DNA from: an uncultured Bifidobacterium sp.
GTDB lineage: Bacteria > Bacteroidota > Bacteroidia > AKYH767-A > OLB10
Direction of reading: 5' to 3'
Length of the DNA stretch: 64,000 nt
Assembly: GCA_964534995.1 (NCBI GenBank)
Contig: CAZHSC010000005.1
Location: 17,857-81,856 of the forward strand
In this document: in pieces, positions 11,467 to 45,837 of the stretch
Numbering within the stretch: the stretch's first letter is position 1
How the letters are laid out: each line of letters starts with the position of its first letter
Notes under the pieces: model-generated
What the model was told of the DNA's origin: nothing
Database searches by the model: none
The model's input: the letters and a program-made list of their open reading frames with translations, nothing else
Made by a program: the position numbers and the translations under genes

Positions 11467-11477
11467 GATTTGAAGAT

Positions 11478-12716
11478 TTAATTTGAATCAGGAGACAATA
11501 GCCACCGGAATACATTCATGTGAATAACACCCTTTTGGTTTTGAGTAAAGGAATCAGAAGTCAATAAATACTTTGGGTAGTTGTCATTTAATTTTTCCAA
11601 AGACTGGAATTCCCTCTTCGATGTTTCGGGCGAACTTAATAACCACGCTACCTGGAAATAGGTTAGTTCGCCATTGGGAGTTTTGCAAACAAAATCAACT
11701 TCACCAGACCTTGATGTTCCTGTCCAGATTTTATAACCACGTCGCAAGAGTTCAAGATAAACTACATTCTCCAGAATATGTCCACGATCAGCAGTACGTT
11801 CTTTTCCAACCAGTATATTTAATAATCCCGGATCTACCAGATAATACTTTTCTTGTGTTGCCAGTTGTTTCCTTCCCTTTAAATCAAAGCGGTTTACTTT
11901 ATAGAATACAAAACCTGCAACGAGATATTCGAGGTATTTATCAACGGTTGAATGATGGATTTGTTGACCATCAGTCTTTAGCGCCTTGGATATGTTACCC
12001 GGAGAAAGGGCACTTCCAATTTGAGAAGCCATAAACCTTACGATATTTTCGAAGGCACGTTTGTTGTTTATCTGATGACGTTGTGAAATGTCTTTTTCAA
12101 TAATACTGGTATAAATTGCCTGCAGATACTCGTAAATTTTATCATGTCCTCCTTCACGTAATTCCACCCCTTTGGGCAATGATGTTTCGTTTACATAGTC
12201 AAAAAACAACGCTTCATAGTCAAGATATTTATTGTCAATTTCAATTTTTCGTGCGATCAAATATTCTTTGAATGAAAAAGGAAGTAATGAAATCTCAATA
12301 TACCTGCCACTTAAAAGCGTAGCCAGTTCACCCGAAAGCAACAATGCATTGGATCCGGTAATATATACATCCATGTTAGGTTTAACATATAATCCATCTA
12401 CCAATCTTTCGAATCCATTTACATTCTGCACTTCATCAAGAAAGACATAATTAGGTTTTTCTTTGTCGAGTCGACTTACTATATATTCATACAAACCATC
12501 CAGGTCATTCAGATACCGTCGATATTCGAAATCTTCAAAGTTTATAGATAAAATCTGGCTGTCGGCTACGCCCATCTCCCGTAAGGTTCGTCGATACAGT
12601 TCCAATAAGGTGCTCTTGCCGCTTCGTCGTAATCCTGTCACCACCTTAATTAGGTCTAAATCTTTGTATGACAATAATTTAGCCGTGTATTCTGTCCGTT
12701 CGATATATTCTGCCAT
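11478..12716 (-). CDS. AAA-family ATPase with C-terminal DUF4143 / PD-(D/E)xK-like domain
   Basis: 412 aa with Walker A GLRRSGKST, Walker B YVFLDEVQ and C-terminal GEVDFVCK. It is visibly AT-rich and lies 11 nt upstream of the SWIM gene on the same strand. Confidence 0.8.
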   Translation of the reverse strand: MAEYIERTEYTAKLLSYKDLDLIKVVTGLRRSGKSTLLELYRRTLREMGVADSQILSINFEDFEYRRYLNDLDGLYEYIVSRLDKEKPNYVFLDEVQNVNGFERLVDGLYVKPNMDVYITGSNALLLSGELATLLSGRYIEISLLPFSFKEYLIARKIEIDNKYLDYEALFFDYVNETSLPKGVELREGGHDKIYEYLQAIYTSIIEKDISQRHQINNKRAFENIVRFMASQIGSALSPGNISKALKTDGQQIHHSTVDKYLEYLVAGFVFYKVNRFDLKGRKQLATQEKYYLVDPGLLNILVGKERTADRGHILENVVYLELLRRGYKIWTGTSRSGEVDFVCKTPNGELTYFQVAWLLSSPETSKREFQSLEKLNDNYPKYLLTSDSFTQNQKGVIHMNVFRWLLSPDSN

Positions 12717-26017: not shown

Positions 26018-26317
26018 AGTTGGGGATAAAACCTAAAAGGATTGAATTAAACCCATTTCTCCGTTTTATTTAATAGACCACTGAGATTTAATGGTTTATA
26101 GAACGGGAGCCATGCCCTTTTATTTTTCATTTTCAAAAAAATTTACGCACACCAGTTTATTCCCGATTAATTGCTGAATTAACACTAAAACCAAGGGTTG
26201 ACTGGTGTTTGTATTTTTATTACATTGGTGAGCAATTCTTTGTGGTGTTTCGTTTCAATTCATATTTGAATTAACGTTACCTATAAATTGGTTTATAAAC
26301 ACTGATCTCGCAATGTC

Positions 26318-27856
26318 ATGGAACATTGTAAACGCCAATCAACTGATGTTACAAATTATTTTTTCACTGTTACATCAGCGATTACTACTTATTTTACGGT
26401 GAGTTCAGCTGTTTTTATTCTTTCATTATTTTGCTTACTTCCTTTTTTTTATGTCATCAATACGGTGGAACGACGCAAAAGCATCCGGCATATTTTCACC
26501 TTTACCCTGCTTCTCTCATTATTTTTCTTTTCCTGGATAATCAATTCAGGAATACATTATACCGGTAACCATGTATACGCGGCCATCGGCGGATTTATAC
26601 TTTGTGTAGTGCTTTATTTACTTTCAATACTCCTTGTATTTATCCTCTTTTCGACAATACGAAGAACTGATAACAGAAAAGGGGGTGCCTTTGTACATGC
26701 AATTTCAATTGCCCTGGTATGGATGTGTATGGAAGAAGTGCGGTTATTATTGCTTAGCGGATTTCCATATCTCGACCTTCGAATCGGATATGCAATGGCT
26801 GATAATAATTTTACGATTCAGTGGGTTTCCGTTTTTGGAACCGGTATTCTGACTTTTTTCGTGATTTTCATCAATTGGTACCTTGCCGAAATCATTAGTA
26901 AAAGAAAGTTCTCATACGCTGATTTTACTTTGCCTGTTGTGTTTACATTATTTGTACCCGGTATTGGCTTTGCTTTCAAGAGAATTTTACATCCAACTTC
27001 CGATGAAGGAAACTTAAGTCGAATCGCTTTAATAACTCATAACCTCCCACCTGAAATTACATGGAGTCGCGACAGTGAACAAGAATTATCTGCGCTGTAT
27101 TTTAAACTTACCAGGGAGGCCATAGCTGCAAAGCCAGATTTGATTGTCTGGACGGAATCTGCGTTCCCATGGCAATACCAAAAGGGAGATTACTTGATAG
27201 GAAAAATAACAAGTGAAGGCCGTGAAGCGGGTATCGAGCAGTTACTGGGTGTAAACAGGCCGGTCGAAAATGAAACTGGAAGCATTTACAATTCCGCACT
27301 TCTGATTGATAAAAACGGATATGAGCAAACCTATGACAAACGCAGATTGCTGACCCTGATTGAATCCCCATTGTCCTTTGGAAAGGTAAACCTATTATTA
27401 CCCATGCTTGGCACATCCGGTATCCGGATTCATAAAGGAAGGGAGGAAAAAACCTTACTTACGGAAGCAGGTACTTTGGGTTTAAGAATCTGTAATGAAG
27501 CGATCTATCCTGTACAGATCCGTAATGGATTCAATCCGGAAATGCTATTAGTAATAGGCAATGACAGTTGGTTTGAAAATACCTACCTTCCATTTTTACA
27601 CTTGCTGATCTGCAGGCTGCGTGCGCTTGAAACCGGAAAAGACGTTATTGTAAACATAAGCCGGGGCTATACAGGTCTGGCATTACATGACGGGAGTTTT
27701 TCCGATCTCCATCATCAGAAAAATCCATCATTGACTTTCGTCATTGTAAGTCATCAAAAAAAATCACAGATTGCTGCTTATTATCCATATTGGTTTACTG
27801 TCACTGGGTTAATCTTTCTATCACTAATAATGATTGTAAAATCTAAATATTTTTAA
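26318..27856 (+). CDS. Lnt-family (apolipoprotein N-acyltransferase-like) membrane CN-hydrolase, divergent paralogue
   Basis: 512 aa with a multi-TM N-terminal half carrying an SGFPY motif. The CN-hydrolase domain has candidate E-K-C triad contexts VWTESAFPW, YDKRRLLTLIE and LRICNEAIYP, and there is a terminal TM helix. The gene is visibly AT-rich. Confidence 0.75.
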   Translation: MEHCKRQSTDVTNYFFTVTSAITTYFTVSSAVFILSLFCLLPFFYVINTVERRKSIRHIFTFTLLLSLFFFSWIINSGIHYTGNHVYAAIGGFILCVVLYLLSILLVFILFSTIRRTDNRKGGAFVHAISIALVWMCMEEVRLLLLSGFPYLDLRIGYAMADNNFTIQWVSVFGTGILTFFVIFINWYLAEIISKRKFSYADFTLPVVFTLFVPGIGFAFKRILHPTSDEGNLSRIALITHNLPPEITWSRDSEQELSALYFKLTREAIAAKPDLIVWTESAFPWQYQKGDYLIGKITSEGREAGIEQLLGVNRPVENETGSIYNSALLIDKNGYEQTYDKRRLLTLIESPLSFGKVNLLLPMLGTSGIRIHKGREEKTLLTEAGTLGLRICNEAIYPVQIRNGFNPEMLLVIGNDSWFENTYLPFLHLLICRLRALETGKDVIVNISRGYTGLALHDGSFSDLHHQKNPSLTFVIVSHQKKSQIAAYYPYWFTVTGLIFLSLIMIVKSKYF

Positions 27857-27858
27857 TC

Positions 27859-30800
27859 ATGAGAAATTATTACATAACCATTCTTGCAATCGTGTCCCTT
27901 TTATCACAACCTGAACTTACGCACGCTAACACCTGTTATTCGGCTTATACGCCATCTCCCACCGCTTCGCAACAAAATACCTGCAGTGGAAATACTGTAA
28001 CATTATATGCAAACGGTAATCTTAGAGATAATAGTTACTGGGCATGGTATAAAGATGGATGTGCATCAACCAGTGTTGGAACAGGCTGGAGTATTAATGT
28101 CGCTCCCACCACCACAACCACATATTATGTAAGGGGAGAAGGTGGATGCGCTCCCGGCCCAGGCCCCTGTGGGCAAATCACCATCAATGTGACTCCAGGT
28201 ATCAATGCGCCTGTTTCCAATGATGTATATCAGTGTCAACCAGATTCCGTAGTGCTGAGTGCCACGCCGACGGGCATTAACCAAACCGTAGACTGGTTTA
28301 ATGTGCCTTCAGGGGGGAGTCCTTTAACAGGAGGTTATGGGACAACAAATTTTACCACTCCCTATCTAACTACCTTTACGACTTTTTATACCCGAGCACG
28401 GGATACACTTACCGGATGTTATTCTGCAAACAGAACTGCTGTAACTGTTTATATTGGATCTGGGGTAAATAATACATGGATATCGAAAGCAAGTTTCCCT
28501 GGAACCGGCAGGTATGGTGGTGTATCCTTTGAAATTAATGGTAAAGCTTATACCGGAACAGGAATAAATTCAAATAACAGTAATACCGATGAATTCTGGG
28601 AGTATGATTTACATACAGACACATGGGCTCAAAAAGCCAATTTCGGAGGTGGCCCGCGTCATCATGGAGTGGGTTTTTCGATCGGAAACAAAGGATATCT
28701 AGGAACCGGTGAAAACGGGCCTACGTTAAGTGATTTTTGGGAATATAATCCCACTACAAATATTTGGATTCAAAAAGCCAATGTTCCTGGAAATAGCCGG
28801 GTCAGTGGTGTTGGATTCGCCAGCACGTCTAAAGGATATATAGGCCTGGGTAATAACGGGAATTACGGAGGAGTTCAGCAATGGTATAATGATTTTTGGG
28901 AGTATAATCCTCAAAGTGATTCCTGGATGAAAATGAATAATTTCCCCGGTACCACATTGGGAAGTCCGGTTTGTGGTGTCATCAATGATAAGGCCTATAT
29001 ATGTACAGGATATAACGGTAGTGCATACACTAACGGATTATGGGAATATAATATTACACTGAACTCCTGGACCGAGAAATCACCTTTGCCTTCGAATGCA
29101 CGTGGCGCTGCATTTGGTTTTTCTTTAGGTTCTAAGTTTTATCTGGGAGGAGGAACGCCTGATGGAGGGGTTACCTCCTATACAGATTTTTGGGAATATA
29201 ATCCATCTGTTTCATCGTGGACACAAAAACCGGATGTGGGTGGAACACCCAGATGTTATACCAATTACTTTTCAGGGAACGGCAAGGGTTATGTTCTTTC
29301 CGGTATTTCTTCAGGTGGGGTTAGCTATAATGAGTTATGGGAATATTCCCCGGTGCAGATGATTCAAACGCTGGATCCTTTAGTAAACAATTACTGTCCG
29401 GGAGCAGCTTTGCAAGTACCTTATAAAATTTCAGGAAATTTTGGGACCTGTTCATCCAATACCTTTACTGTTCAGCTAAGTGACGCTTCAGGTTATTTTA
29501 ACGCACCTGTTAACATTGGGTCAATAACGGCAAACACAGACAGTATCATCCCCTGTATTATTCCCACCGGAATTGCATCCGGCACCGCTTACAGGATAAG
29601 GGTGGTCAGCAGTTCTCCTGCTGTTAACGGTGCCGACAACGGAACTGACATCAATATCGGTACCAGTGTAAACTCCTGGAATCAAAAAGCAACTTTTCCG
29701 TCAACGGGCAGGATTGCACCTTCCGGTTTCGGTATCGGTAATTATGGTTACACGGGATTGGGATATGACGGCAGTAGTTTTAAAAACGACTGGTGGCAGT
29801 ACGACCCTGCAACAAATACCTGGACGCAGAAATCCGATTTCGGAGGCGCTCCCCGTGGTTACGCAGCTTCATTTGTGATCAACGGAAAGGGATATGTTGG
29901 AACCGGTTTACTGTCCTTTTCCGGAACCGATGCGGTGGACTTCTGGGAGTATGATCCGATCAGTAACCAATGGAACCAGCGAGCGAATTTTCCCGGCATA
30001 GCACGTGATGATGCGACAGGATTTACGATAGGAGCCAAAGGTTATGTTTTCGGAGGTGTGAATTCGCCGAGTTCCGTACCTTATAATGACCTTTATGAAT
30101 ACGATCCTGCGAGCAATACCTGGATCACCAAAGTTTCGTTGCCGGCAGTTGCAAGAGGCGGTGCCATCGGCTTTGGCATCAATGGGCTGGGATATGTCGG
30201 ACTTGGAGCGGACGGAAGTTCAAATTATCCCAATGACTTTTGGGCATATAATCCACAGACAAATACCTGGGCTGCAAAGGCAGGTTTTCCCGGCCCGTCA
30301 CGGCGTGAGGCTTCTTCCCTGTCAATCGGCCAGTTCGGTTATGTAAGTTGTGGCTTGAACGGAAGTACCCTCTACAAAGATTTATGGCAATACAATCCTG
30401 TATCTAACGCATGGTCACAGAAGGCGGCATTGCCGGCTCAGGCCAGAAAACTAGCTGCCTGCTTCAATGTGCAAAACACGATTTACCTTGGATTAGGAGC
30501 AACCTCCACCTCCTTGCTAAATGATATGTGGGCTTACAATGCGCAACCTGAAATAAAAACCTTGCCACTCGCCAGTATTCAGTATTGCGCCGGAGACACA
30601 TTTACTATTGGTTTTACCGCAGAAGGAACATTTGGGCAGTGCTCCACTAACACATTTATCGCCCAGTTGAGTGATGCCTATGGATATTTCAGTAATCCGG
30701 TACAGATAGGAAGTATAAACGGGACTACCGGGGGTACCATCGCATGTTCCCTTCCGGCTGGCATAAATCCTGGTCTCAAATACAGGGTCAGGGTTATCAG

Positions 30801-33800
30801 CACCGATCTGCCTGTGACCGGCAGTGATAATGGCGCCGATATCGCCATCGGCGTTGCCCCCTCTTTCTGGACTCAAAAGGCCTACGTGGGAACCGTCGGC
30901 CGGCAGGCAGCCGTGGCCTTCAGTATCGGTGGCAAAGGATATGTAGGTACCGGTTATAATAATTCTTCTTCAGCTTATCTGAAAGATTTCTGGGAATACG
31001 ATGAGGCTACAAACACCTGGACGCAAAAAGCGGATTTCGGAGGTACAGCACGTTACTATGCAATAGCCTTAGAACTGGGAGGAAAGGGATATGTTGGCGC
31101 AGGGTATGATGCTGCCAGTACTGTTAAAAACGATTTCTGGCAGTATGATCCGATCACAAATACCTGGCTCCAGAAAGCAAATATTGGTGGAAATCCACGT
31201 TGGGATGCCTTCGGTTTCGCGGTAGATGGCAAAGGTTATGCAGGCTGCGGTACCGACGGCAGCACCTGGTTACAGGATTTCTGGGAATACAACCCCGTTT
31301 CAGATACCTGGACGCAAAAAGGGAATTTCCAGGGCGGTTACCGTATGGGAGCCTGCACATTTATTGCCGGGAGTAACGCGTACGTTGCAACCGGCCAGGC
31401 GCCCTATGGTGTTTATAAAGATGATCTATGGCAGTATAATCCTGCTTCCGATACATGGACCAAGAAAAACAGTTTTGACGGCGGAGGAAGGTACCGTTCT
31501 GTTGGAATCGGAATCGGAAACAACGGATATATATTCAGCCCGGATTACAAACAACTCTGGAAATATGAATCTGCTTCGGATGCATGGATTCAGCTCCCCG
31601 ATTTTCCTGCAAGTACACGTAATCATTCTATTGGCTTTGCTATCGGTACAAAAGGCTATGTCGGCGCCGGTACTTACTCCAATGATATTTATTCATTCAA
31701 CCCCGATTTACTGGTCTCTGTAAGTTCAATAACACCCACGGGAGTATTATGTCCGGGAGCTAATATAAGCGTTTCTTATACTGCGTCCGGTGTTTTCGGA
31801 ACCTGCACCGGAAATACCTTTTACGCCGAGCTCAGTGATGAATACGGGTACTTCTATTATATTCCCCAGTATATTGGTTCCGTCAGTAGTAACGCCAGCG
31901 GTACCATAGCTTGTACCCTGCCTTCCGGTTTAATTGCGGGTGCAAATTACAAGATCCGTATTATCAGCAGTAATCCTCTGGTTTATTCAACTCCAAAACT
32001 TAATATCGCTATTGGCACTCCGGCAAAAAATATTTGGACCGAAAAGTCTGCTTTCAGTGGAAGTGCTGGCCGGAGTTCGGCTGCTTCATTCAGTATCGGC
32101 AACAAAGGGTATATCGGAACCGGGACAGATGGCACGTCTTTTTACCGTGATTTGTGGGAGTATGACCCTGCCACGGATGTGTGGACGCAGAAAGCGATTT
32201 TACCCGGCGTTTTCAGGTCTGGTGCCGTAGGCTTTTCCGTTAATAACAAAGGATACATCGGGACCGGGTATTCCAATACGGGTACGTATCTCAATGACAT
32301 GTGGGAATACGATCCCGTATCCAACACCTGGCTTCAAAAGGCGAACTTTGGAGGTGCGGCACGTATATGGGCAGTAGCCTTTACCATTGGCAGTAAAGCC
32401 TATGTGGGAACAGGAGCGGATGCTTCTTCTGCTCGTCAGGATTTTTGGGAATTTGATCCGCAGGCAAATTCATGGATTCAGAAAGCTGACTTTGCCGGTG
32501 GCATTCGCTATGGGGCTGCTGGTTTTTCAATTGAAGGCCGAGGATATCTTGGTACGGGCCATGATGGCAGTAGTGCAAAGAGTGATTTCTGGGAGTTCAA
32601 TCCCACATTAAATATCTGGACTCAAAAGACCAGCTACGGGTCGAGCTACTATGGCACAACAGGATTTTCCATTGGCCAAAGAGGTTACATTGGACTGGGT
32701 AGAAGCACCAGCAATTATTTTACGAATTATTTCCAGGAATACAACCCTTTAACCAACTCCTGGACTTCTTTTCCCTTTAAAGGAACAGGCCGTTCTTTTG
32801 CTTCCTCTTTTATAATCGGTAATACTGCATTTACCGGCTGCGGTTATGACGGCACTAACGTAAATGATTTTTATGAATTAAAAGGCGCGCCGGTCATTAC
32901 CACTTCGGCTGTCAGTATCGCCCCCTTATGCGCAGGTGGCCAGATAAATGTACCGTACATTGCCTACGGCGATTTTGGCTCCTGCAATTCCAATACCTTC
33001 ACCGCCCAGCTCAGCGATGCCAGCGGAAGTTTTGCTTCACCGGTAAATATCGGAAGCCTGGTTTCAAATACTTCCGGCTCTATCTCTGCAACCATCCCCG
33101 CCAACACGCCTAACGGCACGGGGTACCGCATCCGTGTGGTTAGCAGCAACCCTGTAGTGACGGGAAGTGATAATGGAGGTAATCTGTATGTCGGAATGAT
33201 GGCAAGTAATGTCTGGACTCAAAAATCCAACTTCGGTGGAATTTCACGTCAGGGCAGCGTATCATTTAATATAGGTAATAAAGGATATGTTGGAACCGGA
33301 ACAGATGCCTGGAACAACAACTATTACAATGATTTTTGGGAATTTGACCCCTCAACAAATACATGGACACAGAAGGCAAATTTTAGTGGTAATGCACGCT
33401 ATTCTGCGGTAGGATTTGCCATTGGTACAAAAGGTTACATTGGAACAGGACAGGATGCAACAATGGAATACAATGATTTCTGGGAATATGATCAAGCAGC
33501 TAATGTCTGGATTCAGAAATCAAATTTTGGAGGTATTCCAAGAGGAGCTGCCGTTGGTTTTGCAATTGGGACAAAAGGATATATTGGAACAGGGGGTTCT
33601 TATTTACAGGATTTCTGGGAATGGGATCAGGTTACTGATACCTGGGTTCAAAAGGCGAATTTCGGAGGAGGAGTTAGAAATAACGCCGTTGGTTTCTCTA
33701 TAGATACAAAAGGATATATTGGCACAGGTTATACAGGTGGCGGTTTTGCACAGGATTTCTGGGAATATGACCCGTACTATAATAACTGGATACAAAAAAG

Positions 33801-36800
33801 CAATTTTGGAGGAACTTCAAGAGCTTATGCTAATGGTTTTTGTATTGGAAACAAAGGCTACATGGGAATGGGATCAAATCCAGGTATATTAACAGATTTT
33901 TATGAGTGGAATCCAAAAACAAATGTTTGGACTTTGCTTGCCAGCTTTTCGGGTTACAATGCTGATATTGGGTTTGCAATTGGTCAAAAAGGTTATGTAG
34001 GAATTGGAATCACAAATTCAGGTAGTGATTTCTGGGAATACACTCCGGATTTTACTATTTCTACCGGACCGCTTAACACGCAACCGCTGTGCGCAGGAGC
34101 TTCAATAACTGTACCCTTCTCAGCCAATGGAACCTTTGTCTGCTCCAACACCTTCACCGCCCAACTCAGCGATGCCAGCGGTAGTTTTGCTGCGCCGGTT
34201 AATATCGGCTCCTTAGTTTCAAATACTTCCGGCACCATCTCCGCTACCATACCCTCCAACACGCCTAACGGTACGGGGTACCGCATCCGGGTGGTCAGCA
34301 GTAACCCCGTTGTGAATGGAAGTGATAATGGAAGTAATATATCGATAGGAACTGTTTCAACCAATAGCTGGTCGCAAAAATCAAATTTTGGCGGTAGCGC
34401 CCGTACCGGTGCATTTAGTTTCAGCATCGGCACAAAAGGATATATGGGAACCGGAAATGAAATTTCTGTTGGTGATAAAAAGGATTTTTGGGAGTACGAT
34501 CAGGTTACTGATACCTGGACACAGAAGGCGGATTTCGGGGGCATTGCACGTCGCAACGCCCGTGGTTTTAGCATAGGTGCAAAAGGATATGCCGGTACCG
34601 GAGGAGCGGATACACAGTCCGGCTCCATTTTATTGTATGATTTCTGGGAATATGACCCTGCATTAAATGTCTGGACTCAAAAGGCAAATTACGGCGGTGG
34701 AGCTGTTGCCGATGCGGTTGCTTTCAGTATAGCCGGACTGGGGTATATGGGTACCGGTTATGATGGCATCGGCGGTGGTTACAGGAATGACTTTTGGGAG
34801 TATAATCCTTTGACAAATACCTGGACCTCTAAAGCCAATTTCGGGGGAACAGCCAGGTATACTGCAGAAGGACTCAGTATTGGAAATAAGGGATATATTG
34901 GTCTGGGTTTTGACAGCAATAACCGGAAGGATTTCTGGGAGTATGATCCAACCACCAATACATGGTTGCAAAAGGCAGACTTTGGCGGATCGCCGAGGTA
35001 CCGCACCGGTTCTTTCACCATCGGCAATGAAGGTTACATAGGCGGCGGATTTGACAATGTATCCGTTTTATTCTCTGATTTCTGGAAATACAATCCTGCA
35101 TCTAATCAATGGACGCAGGTCGCCTCTTTTTCCGGTTCGACACGTCAAGCGGTAATTTGCTTCAGTTTAGGAAACAAAGGCTATATTGGAACAGGTGGTA
35201 ATGCCAATTATACACTTCGCTTTAATGATCTTTGGGAATACACACCGGCTTTTTCAATTTCTACCGGTCCGCTTAGCCTATCGCCTCTGTGTGCAGGAGC
35301 TTCAATAGCTGTACCGTTCACGTCTAATGGTACCTTTATCTGCTCCAACACCTTCACCGCCCAACTCAGCGATGCCAGCGGTAGTTTTGCATCACCGGTA
35401 AATATCGGCAGCCTGGTTTCAAATACTTCCGGCACTATCTCCGCTACCATTCCCTCCAACACACCTAACGGTACGGGATACCGCATCCGTGTGGTAAGCA
35501 CTAACCCTGTAGTGACGGGAAGTGATAATGGAAGTAATCTCAACATCGGAGGGGGTAACCCGGGTAATGGAAACGTATGGACCGGCATGGCTAACTACCC
35601 TTCATCCCAGCGTCAGAATGCTTTTTCCTTCACTATTAATGGAAAAGGTTATGTAGGCACCGGTTATTGTTGCGGGAGTCCGCTTAATGATTTGTGGGAG
35701 TACGACGCTTTAGCTGACGCATGGGTTCAGAAAGCTAATTTCCCCGGCAGTGCCCGTACTGCTGCTGTGGGATTCAGTATAAATGGAAAAGGGTATGCCG
35801 GTACCGGTGGGTATGGAAGTTATAACAATGATTTTTACGAATACGATCCTGTAAATAATACCTGGGTACAGAAGGCCAGTTTCCCCGGCGGAGCGCGGGG
35901 TGGAGCTGTTGGTTTCAGCCTGAATAATAAAGGATATATAGGAACCGGAGAAAATGCTTCCAGTACTATCTTTTACAGTGATCTGTGGGAATACGATCCC
36001 GTAATGAATACCTGGATTCAGAAAGCCTCGTTCGGAGTGCACCCACGCGCATTCGCCTTTAGTTTTACCATAGGAAATAGAGCATACGTCGGTGGTGGGG
36101 AAGCATCAGGAAATTCCTGGGATGATTTCTGGGAGTATGATCCTTTAGCGGATTCATGGATACAGAAGGCGGCTTTCGGTGGCGGCGTAAGATATGGGGT
36201 CACTGGATTTTCACTCGGTTCTTTCGGATATGCCTGTTGCGGATATAATTCCAATTCACATAATGATTGCTGGATGTATAACCCCGCTTCCAACCAATGG
36301 ATACAACGCCCTTCCCTTCCCGGTTCCGTCCGCACTTATGCAACAGGCTTTACCATTGAATATAATGCTTATATCGGTGCAGGGGCAAATGGTGCCTGGC
36401 CCGGCGATTACTTCCGGTATACACCTGACTTGCTGGTAAGCTCTCCGCTTACAAACAACAGCTTATGCCAGAACAGTATGTTCGATGTAAGCTATACTTC
36501 CCCGGGAGTTGAATTCCTGCCCTGTAACACTTTTACGGCACAACTCAGCGATGCCAATGGTAGTTTTGCATCACCTGTGAACATTGGATCTCTTGTTTCT
36601 CCGGATTCATCGGGCATTATTCCAGTAATAGTTCCTAACGGAACACCGCCCGGTAATTCCTATAGAATTCGTGTCATCAGCAACCATCCGGCTATCACGG
36701 GAACCGACAACGGAAGCAATATCAGCATCGGAGCCGATACTGCCTTAGTTTATTACCGGGATTTTGATAACGACGGTTTCGGAGATCCAAATAATAACAA

Positions 36801-37275
36801 ATCTGCCTGTACATCGCCATCAGGTTACGTTACGAATAACACCGATTGCAACGATAACAGTGCATTTATCCACCCTGGCACAATTGATATATGCGGTAAC
36901 AATATCGATGAAGATTGCAGCGGCACTGATTCAATTTGTTCCTCAAATATTGTACTTCTCGTTCGTTTATTTATTGAAGGATATTATATTGGTAATTCGC
37001 TGATGTCACCTGTACTGTTTAACAATGGGCTGAGTATAAATACAAATGCTTGTGATAGCGTGATTATAGAATTGCGAGAATCCCTGAGCCCATTCGGTAC
37101 GTTTATTTCGACAGGAACAATACTTCAAACCAATGGTTATGCAAACATTTTGCTGCCTGCCACTATGATTGGAAGCACTTACTATATAGTAGTGAAACAA
37201 AGAAACTCCATCGAAACCTGGAGTAAATATCCTGTCACCCTCACGGGTGGAACCAATATTTTTACTTTTAACTGA
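27859..37275 (+). CDS. Giant (3138-aa) secreted protein: N-terminal Ig-like domains, 7 x (six-bladed Kelch propeller + ~100-aa Ig-like module), MopE-like metal-binding motif, C-terminal beta-sandwich-like module; no T9SS CTD
   Basis: One uninterrupted ORF with a signal peptide (…LTHANTC). I counted 42 blade motifs of the form (N/D)DFWEYDPxTNTWTQKAxFGG..R...GFxIGxKGYxGTG. Seven TFTAQLSDASGSFASPVNIG...YRIRVVS modules occur with a period of about 1.19 kb. The YYRDFDNDGFGDP...CNDNSAFIHPG...CGNNIDEDCSG motif is present near the C-terminus. Confidence 0.9.
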   Translation: MRNYYITILAIVSLLSQPELTHANTCYSAYTPSPTASQQNTCSGNTVTLYANGNLRDNSYWAWYKDGCASTSVGTGWSINVAPTTTTTYYVRGEGGCAPGPGPCGQITINVTPGINAPVSNDVYQCQPDSVVLSATPTGINQTVDWFNVPSGGSPLTGGYGTTNFTTPYLTTFTTFYTRARDTLTGCYSANRTAVTVYIGSGVNNTWISKASFPGTGRYGGVSFEINGKAYTGTGINSNNSNTDEFWEYDLHTDTWAQKANFGGGPRHHGVGFSIGNKGYLGTGENGPTLSDFWEYNPTTNIWIQKANVPGNSRVSGVGFASTSKGYIGLGNNGNYGGVQQWYNDFWEYNPQSDSWMKMNNFPGTTLGSPVCGVINDKAYICTGYNGSAYTNGLWEYNITLNSWTEKSPLPSNARGAAFGFSLGSKFYLGGGTPDGGVTSYTDFWEYNPSVSSWTQKPDVGGTPRCYTNYFSGNGKGYVLSGISSGGVSYNELWEYSPVQMIQTLDPLVNNYCPGAALQVPYKISGNFGTCSSNTFTVQLSDASGYFNAPVNIGSITANTDSIIPCIIPTGIASGTAYRIRVVSSSPAVNGADNGTDINIGTSVNSWNQKATFPSTGRIAPSGFGIGNYGYTGLGYDGSSFKNDWWQYDPATNTWTQKSDFGGAPRGYAASFVINGKGYVGTGLLSFSGTDAVDFWEYDPISNQWNQRANFPGIARDDATGFTIGAKGYVFGGVNSPSSVPYNDLYEYDPASNTWITKVSLPAVARGGAIGFGINGLGYVGLGADGSSNYPNDFWAYNPQTNTWAAKAGFPGPSRREASSLSIGQFGYVSCGLNGSTLYKDLWQYNPVSNAWSQKAALPAQARKLAACFNVQNTIYLGLGATSTSLLNDMWAYNAQPEIKTLPLASIQYCAGDTFTIGFTAEGTFGQCSTNTFIAQLSDAYGYFSNPVQIGSINGTTGGTIACSLPAGINPGLKYRVRVISTDLPVTGSDNGADIAIGVAPSFWTQKAYVGTVGRQAAVAFSIGGKGYVGTGYNNSSSAYLKDFWEYDEATNTWTQKADFGGTARYYAIALELGGKGYVGAGYDAASTVKNDFWQYDPITNTWLQKANIGGNPRWDAFGFAVDGKGYAGCGTDGSTWLQDFWEYNPVSDTWTQKGNFQGGYRMGACTFIAGSNAYVATGQAPYGVYKDDLWQYNPASDTWTKKNSFDGGGRYRSVGIGIGNNGYIFSPDYKQLWKYESASDAWIQLPDFPASTRNHSIGFAIGTKGYVGAGTYSNDIYSFNPDLLVSVSSITPTGVLCPGANISVSYTASGVFGTCTGNTFYAELSDEYGYFYYIPQYIGSVSSNASGTIACTLPSGLIAGANYKIRIISSNPLVYSTPKLNIAIGTPAKNIWTEKSAFSGSAGRSSAASFSIGNKGYIGTGTDGTSFYRDLWEYDPATDVWTQKAILPGVFRSGAVGFSVNNKGYIGTGYSNTGTYLNDMWEYDPVSNTWLQKANFGGAARIWAVAFTIGSKAYVGTGADASSARQDFWEFDPQANSWIQKADFAGGIRYGAAGFSIEGRGYLGTGHDGSSAKSDFWEFNPTLNIWTQKTSYGSSYYGTTGFSIGQRGYIGLGRSTSNYFTNYFQEYNPLTNSWTSFPFKGTGRSFASSFIIGNTAFTGCGYDGTNVNDFYELKGAPVITTSAVSIAPLCAGGQINVPYIAYGDFGSCNSNTFTAQLSDASGSFASPVNIGSLVSNTSGSISATIPANTPNGTGYRIRVVSSNPVVTGSDNGGNLYVGMMASNVWTQKSNFGGISRQGSVSFNIGNKGYVGTGTDAWNNNYYNDFWEFDPSTNTWTQKANFSGNARYSAVGFAIGTKGYIGTGQDATMEYNDFWEYDQAANVWIQKSNFGGIPRGAAVGFAIGTKGYIGTGGSYLQDFWEWDQVTDTWVQKANFGGGVRNNAVGFSIDTKGYIGTGYTGGGFAQDFWEYDPYYNNWIQKSNFGGTSRAYANGFCIGNKGYMGMGSNPGILTDFYEWNPKTNVWTLLASFSGYNADIGFAIGQKGYVGIGITNSGSDFWEYTPDFTISTGPLNTQPLCAGASITVPFSANGTFVCSNTFTAQLSDASGSFAAPVNIGSLVSNTSGTISATIPSNTPNGTGYRIRVVSSNPVVNGSDNGSNISIGTVSTNSWSQKSNFGGSARTGAFSFSIGTKGYMGTGNEISVGDKKDFWEYDQVTDTWTQKADFGGIARRNARGFSIGAKGYAGTGGADTQSGSILLYDFWEYDPALNVWTQKANYGGGAVADAVAFSIAGLGYMGTGYDGIGGGYRNDFWEYNPLTNTWTSKANFGGTARYTAEGLSIGNKGYIGLGFDSNNRKDFWEYDPTTNTWLQKADFGGSPRYRTGSFTIGNEGYIGGGFDNVSVLFSDFWKYNPASNQWTQVASFSGSTRQAVICFSLGNKGYIGTGGNANYTLRFNDLWEYTPAFSISTGPLSLSPLCAGASIAVPFTSNGTFICSNTFTAQLSDASGSFASPVNIGSLVSNTSGTISATIPSNTPNGTGYRIRVVSTNPVVTGSDNGSNLNIGGGNPGNGNVWTGMANYPSSQRQNAFSFTINGKGYVGTGYCCGSPLNDLWEYDALADAWVQKANFPGSARTAAVGFSINGKGYAGTGGYGSYNNDFYEYDPVNNTWVQKASFPGGARGGAVGFSLNNKGYIGTGENASSTIFYSDLWEYDPVMNTWIQKASFGVHPRAFAFSFTIGNRAYVGGGEASGNSWDDFWEYDPLADSWIQKAAFGGGVRYGVTGFSLGSFGYACCGYNSNSHNDCWMYNPASNQWIQRPSLPGSVRTYATGFTIEYNAYIGAGANGAWPGDYFRYTPDLLVSSPLTNNSLCQNSMFDVSYTSPGVEFLPCNTFTAQLSDANGSFASPVNIGSLVSPDSSGIIPVIVPNGTPPGNSYRIRVISNHPAITGTDNGSNISIGADTALVYYRDFDNDGFGDPNNNKSACTSPSGYVTNNTDCNDNSAFIHPGTIDICGNNIDEDCSGTDSICSSNIVLLVRLFIEGYYIGNSLMSPVLFNNGLSINTNACDSVIIELRESLSPFGTFISTGTILQTNGYANILLPATMIGSTYYIVVKQRNSIETWSKYPVTLTGGTNIFTFN
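32990..35540 (+). repeat. High-identity intragenic DNA repeats inside the giant gene (copies at ~32990-33185, 34030-34340 and 35230-35540)
   Basis: Aligned by eye, the copies at 34030-34340 and 35230-35540 are offset by exactly 1200 nt with roughly nine in ten bases identical. The copy at 32990-33185 shares the 190-nt TFTAQLSDASGSF core. Confidence 0.8.
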
Positions 37276-41032: not shown

Positions 41033-44000
41033 TTATAGCTTCACCAGCTTCAGGGTGCGGCTGCCGGATTCGGTAAGCAGTCGCAGGAGATAAACACCTT
41101 GCGGCGACTGGCGCAAGTCGATCAGGGCGCGATAGGAATTACCTGCATTAACGTCCCGGCTCATCACCACACGGCCTTCTATATCTGTGAGGATATAGGA
41201 AACATTCTTCGCGGTGACCCCATTCAGTTCGAGGTTGAATAAACCGGCGGAAGGATTGGGATAAACCGCCACATTGCCGAGTTTATCGGGCTGATCCAGT
41301 CCGGTGGTAGTGCTTATGTTTACATTATCAACATAGAGGTTATTTCCATACCCGTTAATGTTCACAAACTTCAGCAGCACACCGGAGCCTATCCAGTTGT
41401 TCAGGTTAACGGTATCTTTTCTCCAATCAGTGGCATTGGCCGGAATGAATTCAGTAGTCAATGTGCCCACTGTGGCCAGGCCAAGGCCATCTTTCTGATA
41501 TCCCGCGGGCTGCCAGGTGTTGCCGCAATCGGTAGAGATGTCTACACGCAGGGTATCGGTATAGGTAGCACTGTACTGGGCATAGGCCACATCAAAAGTC
41601 ATGATGGCGTCGATGGCATTTACCAGTGAAACCTCCAGGGTAACCAGTCCGTCTTCAGCACCTACATTGTTGTAATCGAAATTATCCACAAAAGAGCAGG
41701 CGGTGAGGTTGCCGTTTGCTCCTGTTACTGCCGCTGCTTCTGCCCAGGTGATGGCGGCACCGGCATCATCAATGCTCCAGGAGGCAGGAGGGAAGGTTCC
41801 GCTCTGGAAGTCTTCACTAAACGGTGTTACTGCCGCCGCCAGAATCGTAATGAGCGAGGTCTGATTAACGGTACCACCTCCAAAACCATTGGTGGCGGTC
41901 AGCTCTACATCATAGGTTCCTGTCGCGTTGAAAACTACCTGCGGATTTTGGGAAGTAGCGGAGGTGCCATTGACAAAACTCACACTGGCAGGCGTGAAGG
42001 TCCACTGCCAGCTGTTGGGTGAGTTCAGGCTCTGGTCGGTGAAGGTGAATACCTTTCCGGTACAGCCGCTGGTGGCATTCACCACAAAGGCGGGAACAGG
42101 AGGAGCGGAGGACTCGATAATGTTGATATCATCCAGAGCGATGTCTGATTCGAAGTTATTACCGGTAACCGCGCGGAAGCGTACATTGATCACGTCACCG
42201 GCCCAGGGCATCATGTTCAATACCGCCTGCTGCCAGCTGTTACCCTGGTTGCCGGTAATGGCCGGGATCACATCGTTCACCCATCCTCCCTGCGTAAATA
42301 CATCAACATGTAATTCACCCATGTCTCCGCCATACATATGATACCAGAATGTCATCTGCGGAGCTGAGGCGGCACTGAGGTCGATGCAGGGAGTAATCAG
42401 GTTGGAGTTTTTGTTGAAACATGCCGATGACTCCAGGTACACATAGTTTCCGGCAGCAGTACCTAAGGTGTGGTCCACATCGGGTCCGGTTCCTGCCGAA
42501 GGAGTGGATCCTTCATTGACACGGAAGTCAATATCGTCCTGATCATTGTTTACTTCGTTGATCCAGCCATTGCCCACAGCACAAACCGTTACTTCACAAT
42601 CGCTGGCAGTACTGCAAAGGGTGGAAGCTTCAAAATCCTCAATGAATGGCAGGGTGGCCAGGGTTCCGGCAATCACATTCGTTACGGAGAGCGAAGAGTC
42701 GTTGTACACATTGAGATCCCCGGTGAGGCTGAGCCATGTCTGAAGATTATAGGTGCCGGCCACCGACAAGTCGAGGGTAGCGGTAAAGGTAAAGAGCTGA
42801 GAGGCGCCCGGGGCAAGGGTACCTGTAAAGGTTTCCGTAACTACGGCGCCGCCGTTCAAAGAGAAATTAACGGGGATGTTGGAGACAGGGTTTTGTCCCC
42901 TGTTCTCAATCAGCACCCCTACAGGAACCGCTGAGTTATCATGACAATCCTGCATAGTTCCGTTACCGGGGCTGGCAATGGCGGAGAGCTGCGCATCAAC
43001 GGCGAGCGGGCAGGAGAAAGTACCGGGCGCCTTATAAATCGCGTTGGCTCTGCGTCCGTTATTTCCCTCCGGCGTAATGGCGCTCACGCTGAACCAGTAT
43101 TCCAGATTGGGGTTGGTATTGGCTATCACAATGCTGTTGGTGGTGCTGGTACCCACTGCTTCCATGTATCTGGCGCCAAGCATGTAGGCCGTATAGCCGA
43201 CAGCGCCATTTACGGCATTCCACACCAAACGGATAGAATCCGGGCAGGCCCAGTCAACGGTGATGCCGGTGGGCACGCCGATGATGGCCAGTGAAGTATC
43301 GCTTTCATCACTGAAGCCGTTGCGGCTTACACGCAGTTTGACGGCTCCGGAAACGGTAGCCGGTACGGACCAGTTATATTGCTGAACGTTTTGTGCCACA
43401 CTGGCGGCGATGACATTCCAGGTAGCTCCGTTATCGGTAGAATAGTCGAGCGAGTAGGTGCCCAGGTTACGCTGACCATCCCACCTCAGCACTTCCGTTT
43501 CGCCGGGAACAAAGCCTTCGCCGCCGTTGGGATAGGTCATGGTAACTTCTTCAGAGCGGAATTCCCATACCAGGTAATAGCGCTGGCCTGTTGACGGTAT
43601 CGCATGACCGTTAATGCTCACGGTATAGGTGCCGGCCGCCGGATTATCCAGCGTTACCTGCTCCATGTTATTGAGGGAGTCAACACCTCTGGTGGCTGGT
43701 GCGCTCAGGCTGGCTACCAAAGGGGTTGGATCGAGTATCCAGGGGTTCCAGGCTGTACTGGAAGGATCCGTAACCGTCATGTTCAGGTTGTTCACCAGGG
43801 ACACGGCTGAGGCGGGCGATCCTCCAACATCCGACCAGTACACCATCACCCGCATCTCAGTTACTCCGGCAGGAACGGTGATGTTGTGCGTATTGATGAC
43901 TCCCTGAGTAATGCTGTCCGTCAGATAACGGTTATCTTCAAGGGTACGTACCGCGCGCAAAGCATTCACGCGTCCCCAGCCATAGATAAAATCAGGTCCG

Positions 44001-45436
44001 GGATTGCCAATATCTTCGGCCGTATTCAGGAGGCAGGCTTTGATCAGCGCTGCGGGAGGATTGGAAACAGTATTAAGTTCTTTATAGGCCTGATACATCT
44101 GGGCAAAAATTCCGGCGATACCCGGCGAAGCGGCGGAGGTACCACCACCCACCTGGTAGGTATTGTTTTCATCGGTGCTAAGCTGGTCGCGACCGTTAGC
44201 GCAGATATCGGGCTTGATGCGGCCATCGGAAGCGGGGCCGCGGCTGCTGCTGGGATCCAGTACTTCAAGGGCGTCCAGGTTTCCGCAGGCCACCACATTC
44301 TTTCCCTGCTTGTATCCACCTGTGATATTGCCCCAGCTGCTGCCGGCGCCATAACCGCAGTTTCCGCTGCCGTTATTACCGCCTGAAAAAACAAACTGAA
44401 GCTGGGGATTGTCATACAGCAACTGATCACCGAACTGCGTATCGGAAGTATATTCATTACATCCCTGGGAATAAGAAGTGGAGGCGATCACGATGCCGTA
44501 GTTATTGTAATTCGCCACTGCGTTGACTACCTGCGGATAACTGCCGATATCGAAAGTGTAGAGGTCGGCGCCACTGGCCATGCCACGGATGGTGGGATTC
44601 AGATTACCCGCGCCCACGCAGATACCGCTGGTCATATCACCATGTGTAGATCCCGAACCGGTGGCGAAATTGGTAATACGCCCGGTGAAATCAATATGCG
44701 GGCCTACAAAGCCATCATCGGCTATGGCTACCGTTACATTGTTACCGTCATAATGACGGCCGGTGGCATAATCGCTGTTGATCACATTGGAACGGTGCAG
44801 GCTCCTGCCCTTGGTATCTTCCTTCTCGGATGGCGCCGCAATGGTGTTGATGTAAAATACCCATGGCTCCGCGGCCAGGTCCATCAGGCCGAAATCGCTG
44901 ATGCGAACGGTGATTACCCTGTTCGCGGCACTGTGGCTGATCACTTTTCCATGTCTGGAGATGGCGGCCAGCGCGGCAGGGAGGGAAATGTTCGCCTGAT
45001 ACTGTACATTCAGGTCAACCTTACCTTTCTCCTTAATGGCCCATTCCTGAAAGCCACCGGCGATATTACGGCTGATTTTGTGTAACTGCTCCTGTTTAAT
45101 CACAGCCCTTACCCCGAAAGCAGACAGTTTAGCACGGTCATAACGGACAGGGATGGCCGTCATATAGGTATTCCCGGGAATGTAGTCCATCAGTACGAGT
45201 CCGCTTTTGCGCATCGCGTCCTGTTGCTCTTTTCCGGGGATGCTGTTGAACTGGAGGAACCGGAAATAATATCCGCCAAACACATCCGAAGGTGCGGGGG
45301 AAGAAATAAACTCCGTCAGGTTGGCCGCCGGAGTGATGGTCCCGCTCTGCAGGTACAGGCGGTAATCCTGCTGCGCGCATACAGCCGTGGAAATGAATAC
45401 CACTGCTGCAAGAATCCATGAGTTGAAATGTTTCAT
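41033..45436 (-). CDS. Giant S8 (subtilisin-family) serine peptidase with MAM, PKD and T9SS C-terminal sorting domains
   Basis: About 1467 aa from the ATG at 45436 (MKHFNSW, signal peptide). Catalytic contexts are AIADDGF (D), THGDMTSG (H) and GGGTSAASPGIAG (S). The MAM-like block is FIEDFE...DDINI (~42110-42650) and the PKD-like block is ~41880-42100. The C-terminus VAVYPNPSAGLFNLEL...LKLVKL looks like a T9SS CTD. Confidence 0.9.
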   Translation of the reverse strand: MKHFNSWILAAVVFISTAVCAQQDYRLYLQSGTITPAANLTEFISSPAPSDVFGGYYFRFLQFNSIPGKEQQDAMRKSGLVLMDYIPGNTYMTAIPVRYDRAKLSAFGVRAVIKQEQLHKISRNIAGGFQEWAIKEKGKVDLNVQYQANISLPAALAAISRHGKVISHSAANRVITVRISDFGLMDLAAEPWVFYINTIAAPSEKEDTKGRSLHRSNVINSDYATGRHYDGNNVTVAIADDGFVGPHIDFTGRITNFATGSGSTHGDMTSGICVGAGNLNPTIRGMASGADLYTFDIGSYPQVVNAVANYNNYGIVIASTSYSQGCNEYTSDTQFGDQLLYDNPQLQFVFSGGNNGSGNCGYGAGSSWGNITGGYKQGKNVVACGNLDALEVLDPSSSRGPASDGRIKPDICANGRDQLSTDENNTYQVGGGTSAASPGIAGIFAQMYQAYKELNTVSNPPAALIKACLLNTAEDIGNPGPDFIYGWGRVNALRAVRTLEDNRYLTDSITQGVINTHNITVPAGVTEMRVMVYWSDVGGSPASAVSLVNNLNMTVTDPSSTAWNPWILDPTPLVASLSAPATRGVDSLNNMEQVTLDNPAAGTYTVSINGHAIPSTGQRYYLVWEFRSEEVTMTYPNGGEGFVPGETEVLRWDGQRNLGTYSLDYSTDNGATWNVIAASVAQNVQQYNWSVPATVSGAVKLRVSRNGFSDESDTSLAIIGVPTGITVDWACPDSIRLVWNAVNGAVGYTAYMLGARYMEAVGTSTTNSIVIANTNPNLEYWFSVSAITPEGNNGRRANAIYKAPGTFSCPLAVDAQLSAIASPGNGTMQDCHDNSAVPVGVLIENRGQNPVSNIPVNFSLNGGAVVTETFTGTLAPGASQLFTFTATLDLSVAGTYNLQTWLSLTGDLNVYNDSSLSVTNVIAGTLATLPFIEDFEASTLCSTASDCEVTVCAVGNGWINEVNNDQDDIDFRVNEGSTPSAGTGPDVDHTLGTAAGNYVYLESSACFNKNSNLITPCIDLSAASAPQMTFWYHMYGGDMGELHVDVFTQGGWVNDVIPAITGNQGNSWQQAVLNMMPWAGDVINVRFRAVTGNNFESDIALDDINIIESSAPPVPAFVVNATSGCTGKVFTFTDQSLNSPNSWQWTFTPASVSFVNGTSATSQNPQVVFNATGTYDVELTATNGFGGGTVNQTSLITILAAAVTPFSEDFQSGTFPPASWSIDDAGAAITWAEAAAVTGANGNLTACSFVDNFDYNNVGAEDGLVTLEVSLVNAIDAIMTFDVAYAQYSATYTDTLRVDISTDCGNTWQPAGYQKDGLGLATVGTLTTEFIPANATDWRKDTVNLNNWIGSGVLLKFVNINGYGNNLYVDNVNISTTTGLDQPDKLGNVAVYPNPSAGLFNLELNGVTAKNVSYILTDIEGRVVMSRDVNAGNSYRALIDLRQSPQGVYLLRLLTESGSRTLKLVKL

Positions 45437-45837
45437 TGTAAGTTTTATGGGTTTTTGTGTATGATTTATTTTTTCTTTTAACCGGGGCAATGCTGAATTT
45501 TTTCATGCAAACCGGTGTATAGTACCTACGGGGTACCGCCGGGCAGGCGCTTCATACATGTCTGCTCTCATCAACAAGCGTTTTGATTTATGCTGAAGCG
45601 AAACATCCGCGCCGGCCACAAGTCCGTAAGAAGGCTGAATAATGCTGACTCAGTGGCAAAGACTTCCGGTTTCATTTCACTGAAACGAAAATACACATAA
45701 ACATTTGAATTTATATTTCCGGACCTCCGGAGTGAAAAGAATTAATCGAAAAGTACAATTTCAGGTTAAAATTTTAATTATCAACCGCATAACACGAACA
45801 TGAAATAACATGCCCATGACCTTATGCTGGCAAAGTA

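Follow-up and report, generated by a model that had tools for sequence, protein, structure and literature searches.

We analyzed a 64,000-nucleotide (nt) stretch of DNA, here called the window (positions 17,857 to 81,856 of contig CAZHSC010000005.1, assembly GCA_964534995.1), in which lnt, the gene for apolipoprotein N-acyltransferase (Lnt), lies immediately upstream of a gene for a secreted Kelch-propeller protein of 3138 amino acids (aa), here called the giant. An initial annotation of the sequence had proposed that this Lnt is an accessory paralogue dedicated to acylating or retaining the giant. We found that the lnt-Kelch pair is real, conserved, and rare. The features of the pair, all on the forward strand, are as follows.

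26018..26317 (+): AT-rich intergenic region of 300 nt upstream of lnt, GC 0.323; presumed promoter region
26318..27856 (+): lnt, apolipoprotein N-acyltransferase, 512 aa, ATG start, TAA stop
26357..26977 (+): N-terminal multipass membrane block of Lnt (aa ~14-220); LNT_N match and six hydrophobic segments in a Kyte-Doolittle scan
27113..27640 (+): periplasmic CN-hydrolase domain of Lnt, aa 266-441; PF00795 match and alignment to E. coli Lnt
27155..27157 (+): catalytic Glu280 (VWTESAF, from aa 277), aligned with E. coli E267
27338..27340 (+): catalytic Lys341 (YDKRRL, from aa 339), aligned with E. coli K335
27491..27493 (+): catalytic Cys392 (ICNEA, from aa 391), aligned with E. coli C387
27782..27838 (+): C-terminal transmembrane helix of Lnt, aa 489-507; hydropathy scan
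27854..27861 (+): junction, TAA of lnt, 2 nt (TC), ATG of the giant; read directly
27859..37275 (+): Kelch giant, secreted multipropeller protein, 3138 aa; Kelch-family Pfam matches
27859..27927 (+): signal peptide of the giant, aa 1-23, predicted signal peptidase I cleavage THA/NTC; read directly
27928..28458 (+): two Ig_7 (CHU_C-associated Ig-like) domains; PF19081, two stretches, E 3.9e-19
27934..27936 (+): Cys26, position +3 of the predicted mature giant (C[YH]SAY[TM]P); invariant in a three-way alignment of giants
28471..36828 (+): seven Kelch β-propeller units, with a Kre9_KNH-like Ig module after the propeller in each; Pfam, motif map, and DNA repeats
36844..36930 (+): MopE-type putative metal-binding Cys/Asp motif, aa 2996-3024; PF11617
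36946..37272 (+): unassigned C-terminal β-sandwich, aa ~3030-3138, signature YYIVVKQRNSIETWS; AlphaFold2 (AF2) model

Direct reading bore out the arrangement described in the initial annotation: the lnt stop codon at 27854-27856 and the start codon of the giant at 27859 lie on the same strand. A terminator scan detected no terminator-like site between the two genes. Because of this and the 2-nt gap, we infer that lnt and the giant gene are almost certainly cotranscribed. The spacing argues for cotranscription; it does not show that the two proteins act on each other. The 300 nt upstream of lnt are the sole sizeable noncoding gap ahead of the pair. The Bacteroidota promoter motif TAnnTTTG was found neither upstream of lnt nor near the junction, and a scan with a sigma-70 model, which does not describe Bacteroidota promoters, gave no upstream signal above shuffled expectation.

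Does the pair occur elsewhere? When 1.84 billion representative proteins were searched exhaustively with phmmer, only one Lnt, P0147 (36% identity), stood between the window Lnt and the general crowd. A word-index search added P0002, which is 45% identical to the window Lnt. Both are followed by a relative of the giant. On a 7.3-kb contig, L002, P0002 is separated by 10 nt from an open reading frame (ORF) of more than 1761 aa that is colinear with the giant and 63% identical to it. On L086, an 8.9-kb contig of a metagenome-assembled genome (MAG; GCA_025450095.1), P0147 is separated by 20 nt from a Kelch ORF of more than 872 aa that is 44-51% identical to the giant and starts like it, with a signal peptide, two Ig_7 domains, a Kelch propeller, and an Ig module. 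There are therefore three instances of the lnt-Kelch pair, two of them with giants that are incomplete at the C terminus. The gene upstream of the pair differs in each: FA_hydroxylase in the window, an unrelated fragment in L002, and DUF4907 in L086. Since the pair persists in the three loci while the upstream flank changes, we regard it as a conserved unit. The recurrence of the adjacency in relatives, on which the initial annotation had let its proposal depend, was thus found in both contigs.

The pair is nonetheless rare. A relative of the giant lay within 10 kb of lnt in 0 of 80 reference-genome lnt loci, and two metagenome scans, one with a profile of the Lnt subclade and one with the N terminus of the giant, yielded no further instances. 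As a control, we inspected three related Kelch proteins of the type IX secretion system (T9SS) that lie on long contigs; none adjoins lnt.

We placed the Lnts on a distance-based neighbor-joining tree with 200 bootstraps. The window Lnt and P0002 grouped together with 100% bootstrap support and had long branches. The three Kelch-linked Lnts were monophyletic (89% bootstrap) and nested inside other Bacteroidota Lnts. P0147 is 37-39% identical to ordinary Chitinophagaceae Lnts and 36% identical to the window Lnt; being similarly close to both, it bridges the Kelch-linked and the ordinary enzymes. Within the Kelch-linked clade, the giant is better conserved than Lnt (63% versus 45% identity for L002, and 44-51% versus 36% for L086), whereas in ordinary lnt pairs Lnt is usually about as conserved as its partner or more so. 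This faster evolution of Lnt hints at a relaxed or altered constraint.

The DUF4907 gene of L086 has a counterpart elsewhere. In a Chitinophagaceae MAG, DUF4907 lies directly upstream of Kelch T9SS genes (L088 1952-8000), and this DUF4907-Kelch cassette resembles the DUF4907-lnt-Kelch order of L086, in which lnt separates DUF4907 from the Kelch gene (L086 4305-8864). The cassette in L088 suggests that lnt in L086 joined a preexisting one.

Is the enzyme itself unusual? In the NCBIfam profile search, it matched the lnt equivalog TIGR00546 at 184 bits (cutoff, 132.9), with model positions 2-393 of 395 covered. Pfam identified PF20154 (LNT_N) at aa 31-187 and PF00795 (CN_hydrolase) at aa 266-441, so that the family proposed in the initial annotation held up in profile searches. 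Residues 89-462 align to the solved Lnt structures 5VRG, 5N6H, 5XHQ, and 5N6M (E ~1e-18), and the hydropathy scan placed hydrophobic segments in the region of aa 29-220 and at aa 489-507. The Glu-Lys-Cys contexts and the GFP(Y/W) motif noted initially were all present. They align with E267, K335, and C387 of E. coli Lnt and, in the case of the GFPY at aa 148, with its GFPW motif. E280, K341, and C392 are invariant across an alignment of four Bacteroidota Lnts, and the active-site motifs are retained in both P0002 and P0147. W249, E349, and E394 are the equivalents of E. coli W237, E343, and E389, which, together with Y388, we take from the mutagenesis literature to be further essential residues. 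Asn393 follows the catalytic Cys392 where E. coli has Tyr388. The resulting C-N-E is also invariant in the four aligned Bacteroidota Lnts and present in P0147. Because Asn is found in all the Bacteroidota Lnts aligned, we consider it typical of the clade and no defect of the window lnt. The 512-aa ORF is, by its domains and residues, a bona fide, canonical Lnt with an intact triad, and it is predicted to be functional.

Lnt is well characterized in Proteobacteria. The E. coli and P. aeruginosa enzymes resemble the window Lnt in size (~510 aa), in their membrane block, CN-hydrolase domain, and C-terminal transmembrane helix, and in the E-K-C triad; they differ in being only ~25% identical to it and in having Tyr388 in place of Asn. 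Ordinary Bacteroidota Lnts belong to the same family and share the ICNEA motif, but those paired with the partner gene described below are only 25-31% identical to the window Lnt. The nearest named Lnts, from Chitinophagaceae and Sphingobacteriales, were ~30% identical in a reference-genome scan, and none of the matches listed exceeded 33%. The initial annotation had called the enzyme divergent. Such distances are ordinary in this phylum, however. Among 27 Bacteroidota-type Lnts from the loci analyzed, identity between families is routinely 25-35%, and the Lnts of Edaphocola and Flavisolibacter, both Chitinophagaceae, are equally distant (25-35%) from other Chitinophagaceae Lnts. Hence, we rejected the idea of an unusually divergent Lnt.

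The ORF of 3138 aa was confirmed as a Kelch protein by Pfam, and the count of propellers, which the initial annotation had left unspecified, can now be given as seven propeller-plus-Ig units. PF24681 matched in 14 stretches (E 3.5e-131), and Kelch_1, Kelch_3, Kelch_4, and Kelch_6 matched too. A motif map showed 33 FWEYD-type blade motifs in seven groups, and the QLSD motif of the units recurs at aa 539, 936, 1324, 1717, 2102, 2502, and 2895. At the DNA level, the repeat families have a period of about 1155-1200 nt. Three copies of a 300-nt segment, 65-85% identical, lie 1155 and 1200 nt apart, and a 74-nt core of the Ig module occurs in four copies (80-93% identity). The most similar repeat copies are confined to the 3' part of the gene (32868-36599). 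These repeats indicate that the giant expanded via internal duplication of units of ~1.16-1.2 kb.

The giant is a singleton at 90% identity among 15 billion proteins. Its Kelch relatives number more than 3500; most of those listed are 700-1050 aa long and carry PF18962, the T9SS type A sorting domain, and some carry the MopE motif. PF11617 matched the giant at E 1.9e-07 in the whole protein and at E 5.9e-09 in a C-terminal fragment, and the related Kelch proteins that bear this motif have a T9SS C-terminal domain (CTD) as well. T9SS Kelch proteins such as P0045 and P0051 of Chitinophagaceae are of the same propeller family (40-48% identity), with Ig, fn3, or MopE modules and a signal peptide. 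They differ from the giant in typically having two or three propellers in 700-1050 aa instead of seven units, in ending in PF18962 instead of another β-sandwich, and, in every case examined, in not adjoining lnt. Judged by its domains, the giant is a greatly enlarged representative of the Kelch-propeller surface proteins that Bacteroidota secrete, and it is probably an adhesin or a ligand-binding array.

The C-terminal domain of the giant (~110 aa) occupies the position of the CTD of its relatives. No T9SS type A or B sorting domain (PF18962/TIGR04183 and TIGR04131) was detected in the giant by Pfam or NCBIfam, even at E ≤ 10 on the isolated C terminus, and a local CTD hidden Markov model (HMM) gave no match there (-0.8 bits); the absence of a CTD reported in the initial annotation was thus upheld. 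We found only two homologues of the C-terminal domain, in one of which the domain is internal. An AF2 model gave a seven-strand β fold of low confidence (pLDDT 58). Foldseek searches with this model returned generic β-sandwiches, with no CTD among the top matches and none at E ≤ 1e-3. That the domain is a divergent T9SS CTD, though conceivable, was therefore not accepted, for want of support from Pfam, NCBIfam, the local HMM, or Foldseek.

Could the giant be a substrate of the adjacent Lnt? The canonical substrate of Lnt is the diacylglyceryl-Cys N terminus produced by Lgt and LspA. In E. coli, a phospholipid donates its sn-1 acyl chain to the Cys of Lnt, forming a thioester, from which the S-diacylglyceryl-Cys is then N-acylated. 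We know of no Lnt that acts on a non-diacylglyceryl substrate. The N terminus of the giant reads ...LSQPELTHANTC, with Cys26, and the three giants compare as follows (predicted cleavage marked by a slash).

Window giant, 27859-27960: MRNYYITILAIVSLLSQPELTHA/NTCYSAYTP
L002 giant, L002 2071-2170: ...LILIFLGRVADA/STCYSAYTP (ADA/STC)
L086 giant, L086 6249-6350: ...FFVGLCSKLLA/INCHSAYMP

In all three, Ala occupies position -1 of the predicted cleavage site, 7-9 polar or charged residues separate the hydrophobic core from the Cys, and either T or N immediately precedes the Cys (HANT-C in the window, DAST-C in L002, LAIN-C in L086). Signal peptides were typed by pattern matching and by eye. None of the three giants matched a PROSITE-style lipobox pattern, [LVI][ASTVI][GAS]-C; the same pattern matched four other window proteins (starts at 1713, 4828, 22427, and 50954), which read ...IAC, ...TSC, ...LSC, and ...MSC. 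The signal peptide ending LTHANTC and the lack of a canonical lipobox noted in the initial annotation were therefore borne out, but the proposed acylation or retention of the giant by Lnt was not. With no lipobox and with Ala-ending, signal peptidase I-type sites in all three orthologues, the giant does not qualify as a plausible substrate of canonical Lnt activity: Lnt needs the diacylglyceryl-Cys made by Lgt and LspA, which a protein without a lipobox should not acquire. The giant is probably exported by Sec and cut by signal peptidase I after Ala23, and it is predicted to be nonlipidated.

The pair also stands apart from its surroundings in composition. The GC content of lnt is 0.387 and its GC content at third codon positions (GC3) is 0.355; the values for the giant are 0.459 and 0.410. 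The whole window has a GC content of 0.475, and most window genes have a GC3 of 0.50-0.67. The AT richness of lnt described in the initial annotation is thus real, although the genes of the ATP-binding cassette (ABC) operon used there for comparison have 48-54% GC and not ~55%. A bias from hydrophobic codons was rejected as the cause: other membrane protein genes of the window, namely EamA (GC3 0.667), FA_hydroxylase (0.639), and the ABC permeases (0.60-0.61), show no such shift. In the L086 and L002 contigs, which have 39-40% GC, the lnt-Kelch pair matches its neighbors, and in the ordinary loci L007, L010, and L026 the GC3 of lnt is within ~0.05 of that of neighboring genes. Because the pair has low GC3 here yet matches its neighbors in low-GC relatives, the simplest reading is that both genes came in together, from a relative of lower GC content, into this genome of 47.5% GC. 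The composition, suggestive as it is, fits the horizontal acquisition proposed initially. Low expression could also cause low GC3. A second low-GC island lies at 9763-12716 on the reverse strand, where genes for a 567-aa SWIM zinc finger protein and a 412-aa AAA_14/DUF4143 ATPase have GC3 values of 0.42 and 0.34; this may be another acquired segment.

Across Bacteroidota, lnt has a different usual companion. In 22 of 28 other Bacteroidota-type loci, a gene encoding a WRWRNDDG (WRWR) domain directly adjoins lnt on the same strand (L003 8766-9890, L007 8607-9731, L026 8117-9223, L025 11383-12510, L017 5829-7754, and L031 11419-13206, with others among L005-L032). The WRWR ("NWRWRNDDG") domain comprises ~170 aa right after the signal peptide (NWRWRNDDGNETTATWKAAQNT..., with the start sequence NWRWRNDDGNETTATW), and a T9SS type A sorting domain usually forms the C terminus of WRWR partners. 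The gene is downstream of lnt in Pseudopedobacter, a Flavobacteriaceae genome, Sphingobacteriales, Flavisolibacter, Dinghuibacter, Edaphocola, Fluviicola, and others, and the lnt and WRWR genes often overlap by 4 nt. In a core group of Chitinophagaceae, it lies upstream of lnt by ~80-250 nt. No relative of the WRWR domain was found in Pfam, NCBIfam, or the PDB. An HMM built from 15 partners scored 87-272 bits in 23 other genomes; with HMMER filters off, it detected no WRWR domain in L002, in L086, or in a six-frame translation of the whole window. In 53 loci of other phyla, no WRWR gene adjoined lnt, with one exception by label. This exception, L029 183-2776, is a 2.8-kb contig binned as Phycisphaerae in which lnt overlaps a WRWR gene by 4 nt. 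To our knowledge, Planctomycetota lack a T9SS. We treat L029 with caution, as either a misbinned Bacteroidota contig or a pair outside the phylum.

In L003 (Chitinophagaceae), lnt lies two genes from lspA, which is consistent with a housekeeping role there. The Lnts of L007 and L022, both labeled Ilyomonas, are only 47% identical, and in L022 the WRWR partner lies 3.5 kb from lnt on the opposite strand. This discrepancy reflects either paralogy within Chitinophagaceae or loose MAG taxonomy.

The WRWR-paired loci resemble the window in the tight, same-strand coupling of lnt to a gene for a secreted protein with a signal peptide. They differ in the partner, which in the window is a 3138-aa Kelch array without a WRWR domain and without a recognizable T9SS CTD. 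The giant and the WRWR proteins have no common domain except Ig_7, which occurs in just one WRWR partner. We conclude that the Kelch giant fills the slot held by another secreted protein in most of the phylum. The tree, in which the Kelch-linked Lnts are nested among ordinary ones, indicates that having a Kelch partner is derived. Canonical Lnt genes in Bacteroidota thus appear almost never solitary, being coupled almost always to genes for predicted secreted surface proteins.

What does the coupling in the window represent? The reading that we consider most likely, at slightly better than even chances, is operon partnership without an enzyme-substrate relation. By analogy with E. coli, Cys392 of Lnt, helped by Glu280 and Lys341, would first be loaded, through a thioester, with the acyl chain from the sn-1 position of a phospholipid. 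Lipoproteins that Lgt and LspA have already processed would then receive this chain on the α-amino group of their S-diacylglyceryl-Cys. The giant, transcribed together with lnt, would be exported by Sec, cut after Ala23, and left without a lipid, and its usual T9SS sorting domain would have been replaced by a different β-sandwich. The lnt-giant unit, conserved across three genomes, would here have been acquired horizontally from a lower-GC relative, and it may be a local variant of the broader coupling of lnt to secreted surface proteins in Bacteroidota.

Several observations weigh against this reading. Conservation of a pair over such distances usually reflects a functional link, and pure coexpression explains none. 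Lnt has diverged more than the giant in the Kelch-linked clade, which makes a relaxed or altered function possible. The Cys at +3 of the mature giant is invariant in all three proteins and lies in the first Ig_7 domain, which has five Cys, an odd number, in each. In Bacteroidota, cleavage of the signal peptide is expected to leave an N-terminal Gln (PMC5837995). Most other secreted window proteins follow this rule, with the Ala-Gln cleavage context typical of the phylum, and the giants do not. Finally, our inventory of N-acyltransferases is confined to the 64-kb window, so the standing of lnt as the sole or main enzyme of the cell stays presumptive.

Perhaps, then, Lnt works with its secreted partner in an envelope module? 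The partner, a WRWR T9SS protein in most lineages and the Kelch giant in this clade, would not itself be N-acylated; it would be an accessory factor or a dependent client in some process at the outer surface, for example the display of lipoproteins or the anchoring of cargo. The lnt-WRWR pair is kept across Chitinophagales, Sphingobacteriales, and Flavobacteriales despite Lnt identities of 25-35%, it occurs in both gene orders and often with 4-nt overlaps, it is absent from the 53 lnt loci of other phyla, and the Kelch giant occupies the same downstream slot. All of this evidence is synteny, however. The WRWR domain has no relative of recognized fold or function, and with only Ig_7 shared, in one partner, functional equivalence of the giant and the WRWR proteins would be pure inference. 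We consider such a module possible but unlikely.

More doubtful is the proposal of the initial annotation, in its fuller form, that a dedicated accessory paralogue acylates or tethers the giant independently of a lipobox, for example at the free N-terminal amine or near Cys26, and that a second Lnt or an Lnb-type enzyme serves the general lipoproteome. In its favor, lnt and the Kelch gene stay adjacent in three genomes whose flanks differ. Composition marks the pair as foreign here, which makes an already resident lnt possible. Lnt evolves faster than the giant, with long branches for the window Lnt and P0002, and the invariant +3 Cys lies in an odd-Cys domain behind an N terminus that is not protected by Gln. 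The phylum also offers a precedent for housekeeping N-acylation by an enzyme other than Lnt: Bacteroides and Parabacteroides lack Lnt and use Lnb, a DUF4105 protein (PMC11573676). Lnb carries out the same reaction in the same phylum, so that N-acylation there is not always performed by Lnt; it differs in its unrelated, NlpC/P60-like fold, with 398 aa and five transmembrane helices, and no such gene lies in the window. Nor does the window contain a second lnt. The enzyme, moreover, scores above the equivalog threshold, and its catalytic residues have the same form as in ordinary Bacteroidota Lnts. P0147 is as near to ordinary Chitinophagaceae Lnts (37-39%) as to the window Lnt (36%), which fits an orthologous lineage. 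No giant has a lipobox, and no Lnt that we know of uses a substrate without the diacylglyceryl group. The faster divergence of Lnt and the composition of the pair keep the paralogue idea alive; the missing lipobox and the canonical enzyme weaken it.

Neutral synteny, in which lnt merely lies upstream of a large surface protein gene in related organisms and in a region crowded with such genes, is improbable: the window is indeed dense in T9SS-type genes (PF18962 in at least five of the ~38 main ORFs tabulated), only three instances are known and two metagenome scans added none, and related Kelch proteins elsewhere do not adjoin lnt, but the pair persists although its upstream flank differs in all three loci, Lnt identities of 33-45% imply long divergence, and the composition suggests that the pair moved as a block. 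A bolder proposal is that, outside Bacteroidales, the Lnt homologues of Bacteroidota are more than the general enzyme of lipoprotein N-acylation and form half of a dedicated two-gene module, in which Lnt acylates or tethers the WRWR protein (in most lineages) or the Kelch giant (in this clade) independently of a lipobox, the lnt-giant module being horizontally mobile; we think it just as improbable.

Operon partnership without an enzyme-substrate relation thus remains our preferred reading, and other lnt contexts may be set beside it. Actinobacteria have Lnt paralogues, with more than one Lnt per genome, and a linkage of Lnt to Ppm1. The Lnt-Ppm1 case is similar in that lnt is joined, by fusion or coupling, with a gene from a different envelope pathway; it differs in belonging to another phylum and in its partner, a polyprenol-phosphate mannose synthase, which is an enzyme of the cytoplasmic face. 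We know of no proteobacterial lnt in the gene context of a secreted giant. In the library searched, no paper was found that connects Lnt to type IX secretion or reports gene pairs of this kind, and none that states the distribution of Lnt versus Lnb outside Bacteroidales.

Further genes of the window deserve mention. T9SS type A sorting domains were found in the proteins encoded at 41033-45490, 51410-52636, 56845-58839, 59036-60205, and 61772-63889. Two tandem genes on the reverse strand, 41033-45490 and 45890-49777, encode giant subtilases of 1485 and 1295 aa with MAM or Reelin-like domains; the former also has a PKD domain and a T9SS CTD, and no CTD was detected in the latter. A 626-aa secreted protein (14709-16589, reverse strand) carries a Peptidase_S74 (endosialidase chaperone, intramolecular chaperone autoprocessing) domain, a module better known from phage tail fibers. 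At 52973-54754 on the forward strand, a 593-aa, strongly hydrophobic ORF (42% FILMVW) with a GTG start had no Pfam match at E ≤ 1e-4.

The lnt-giant locus places a known enzyme in an operon variant that is new; it does not represent a novel type of system. The picture of how lipoproteins mature in Bacteroidota is under revision, with Lnb described in 2024 and LolB-like proteins in 2026 (PMC11573676, PMC12889592, and PMC13103446). In one rare clade of this phylum, the partner of lnt is a giant propeller array that apparently travels with it. If the coupling is not functional, this is an ordinary lnt in an unusual operon. If it is functional, it would represent an unrecognized link between N-acylation and surface protein display or the handling of T9SS cargo, and lnt and the giant would provide a concrete, testable gene pair.

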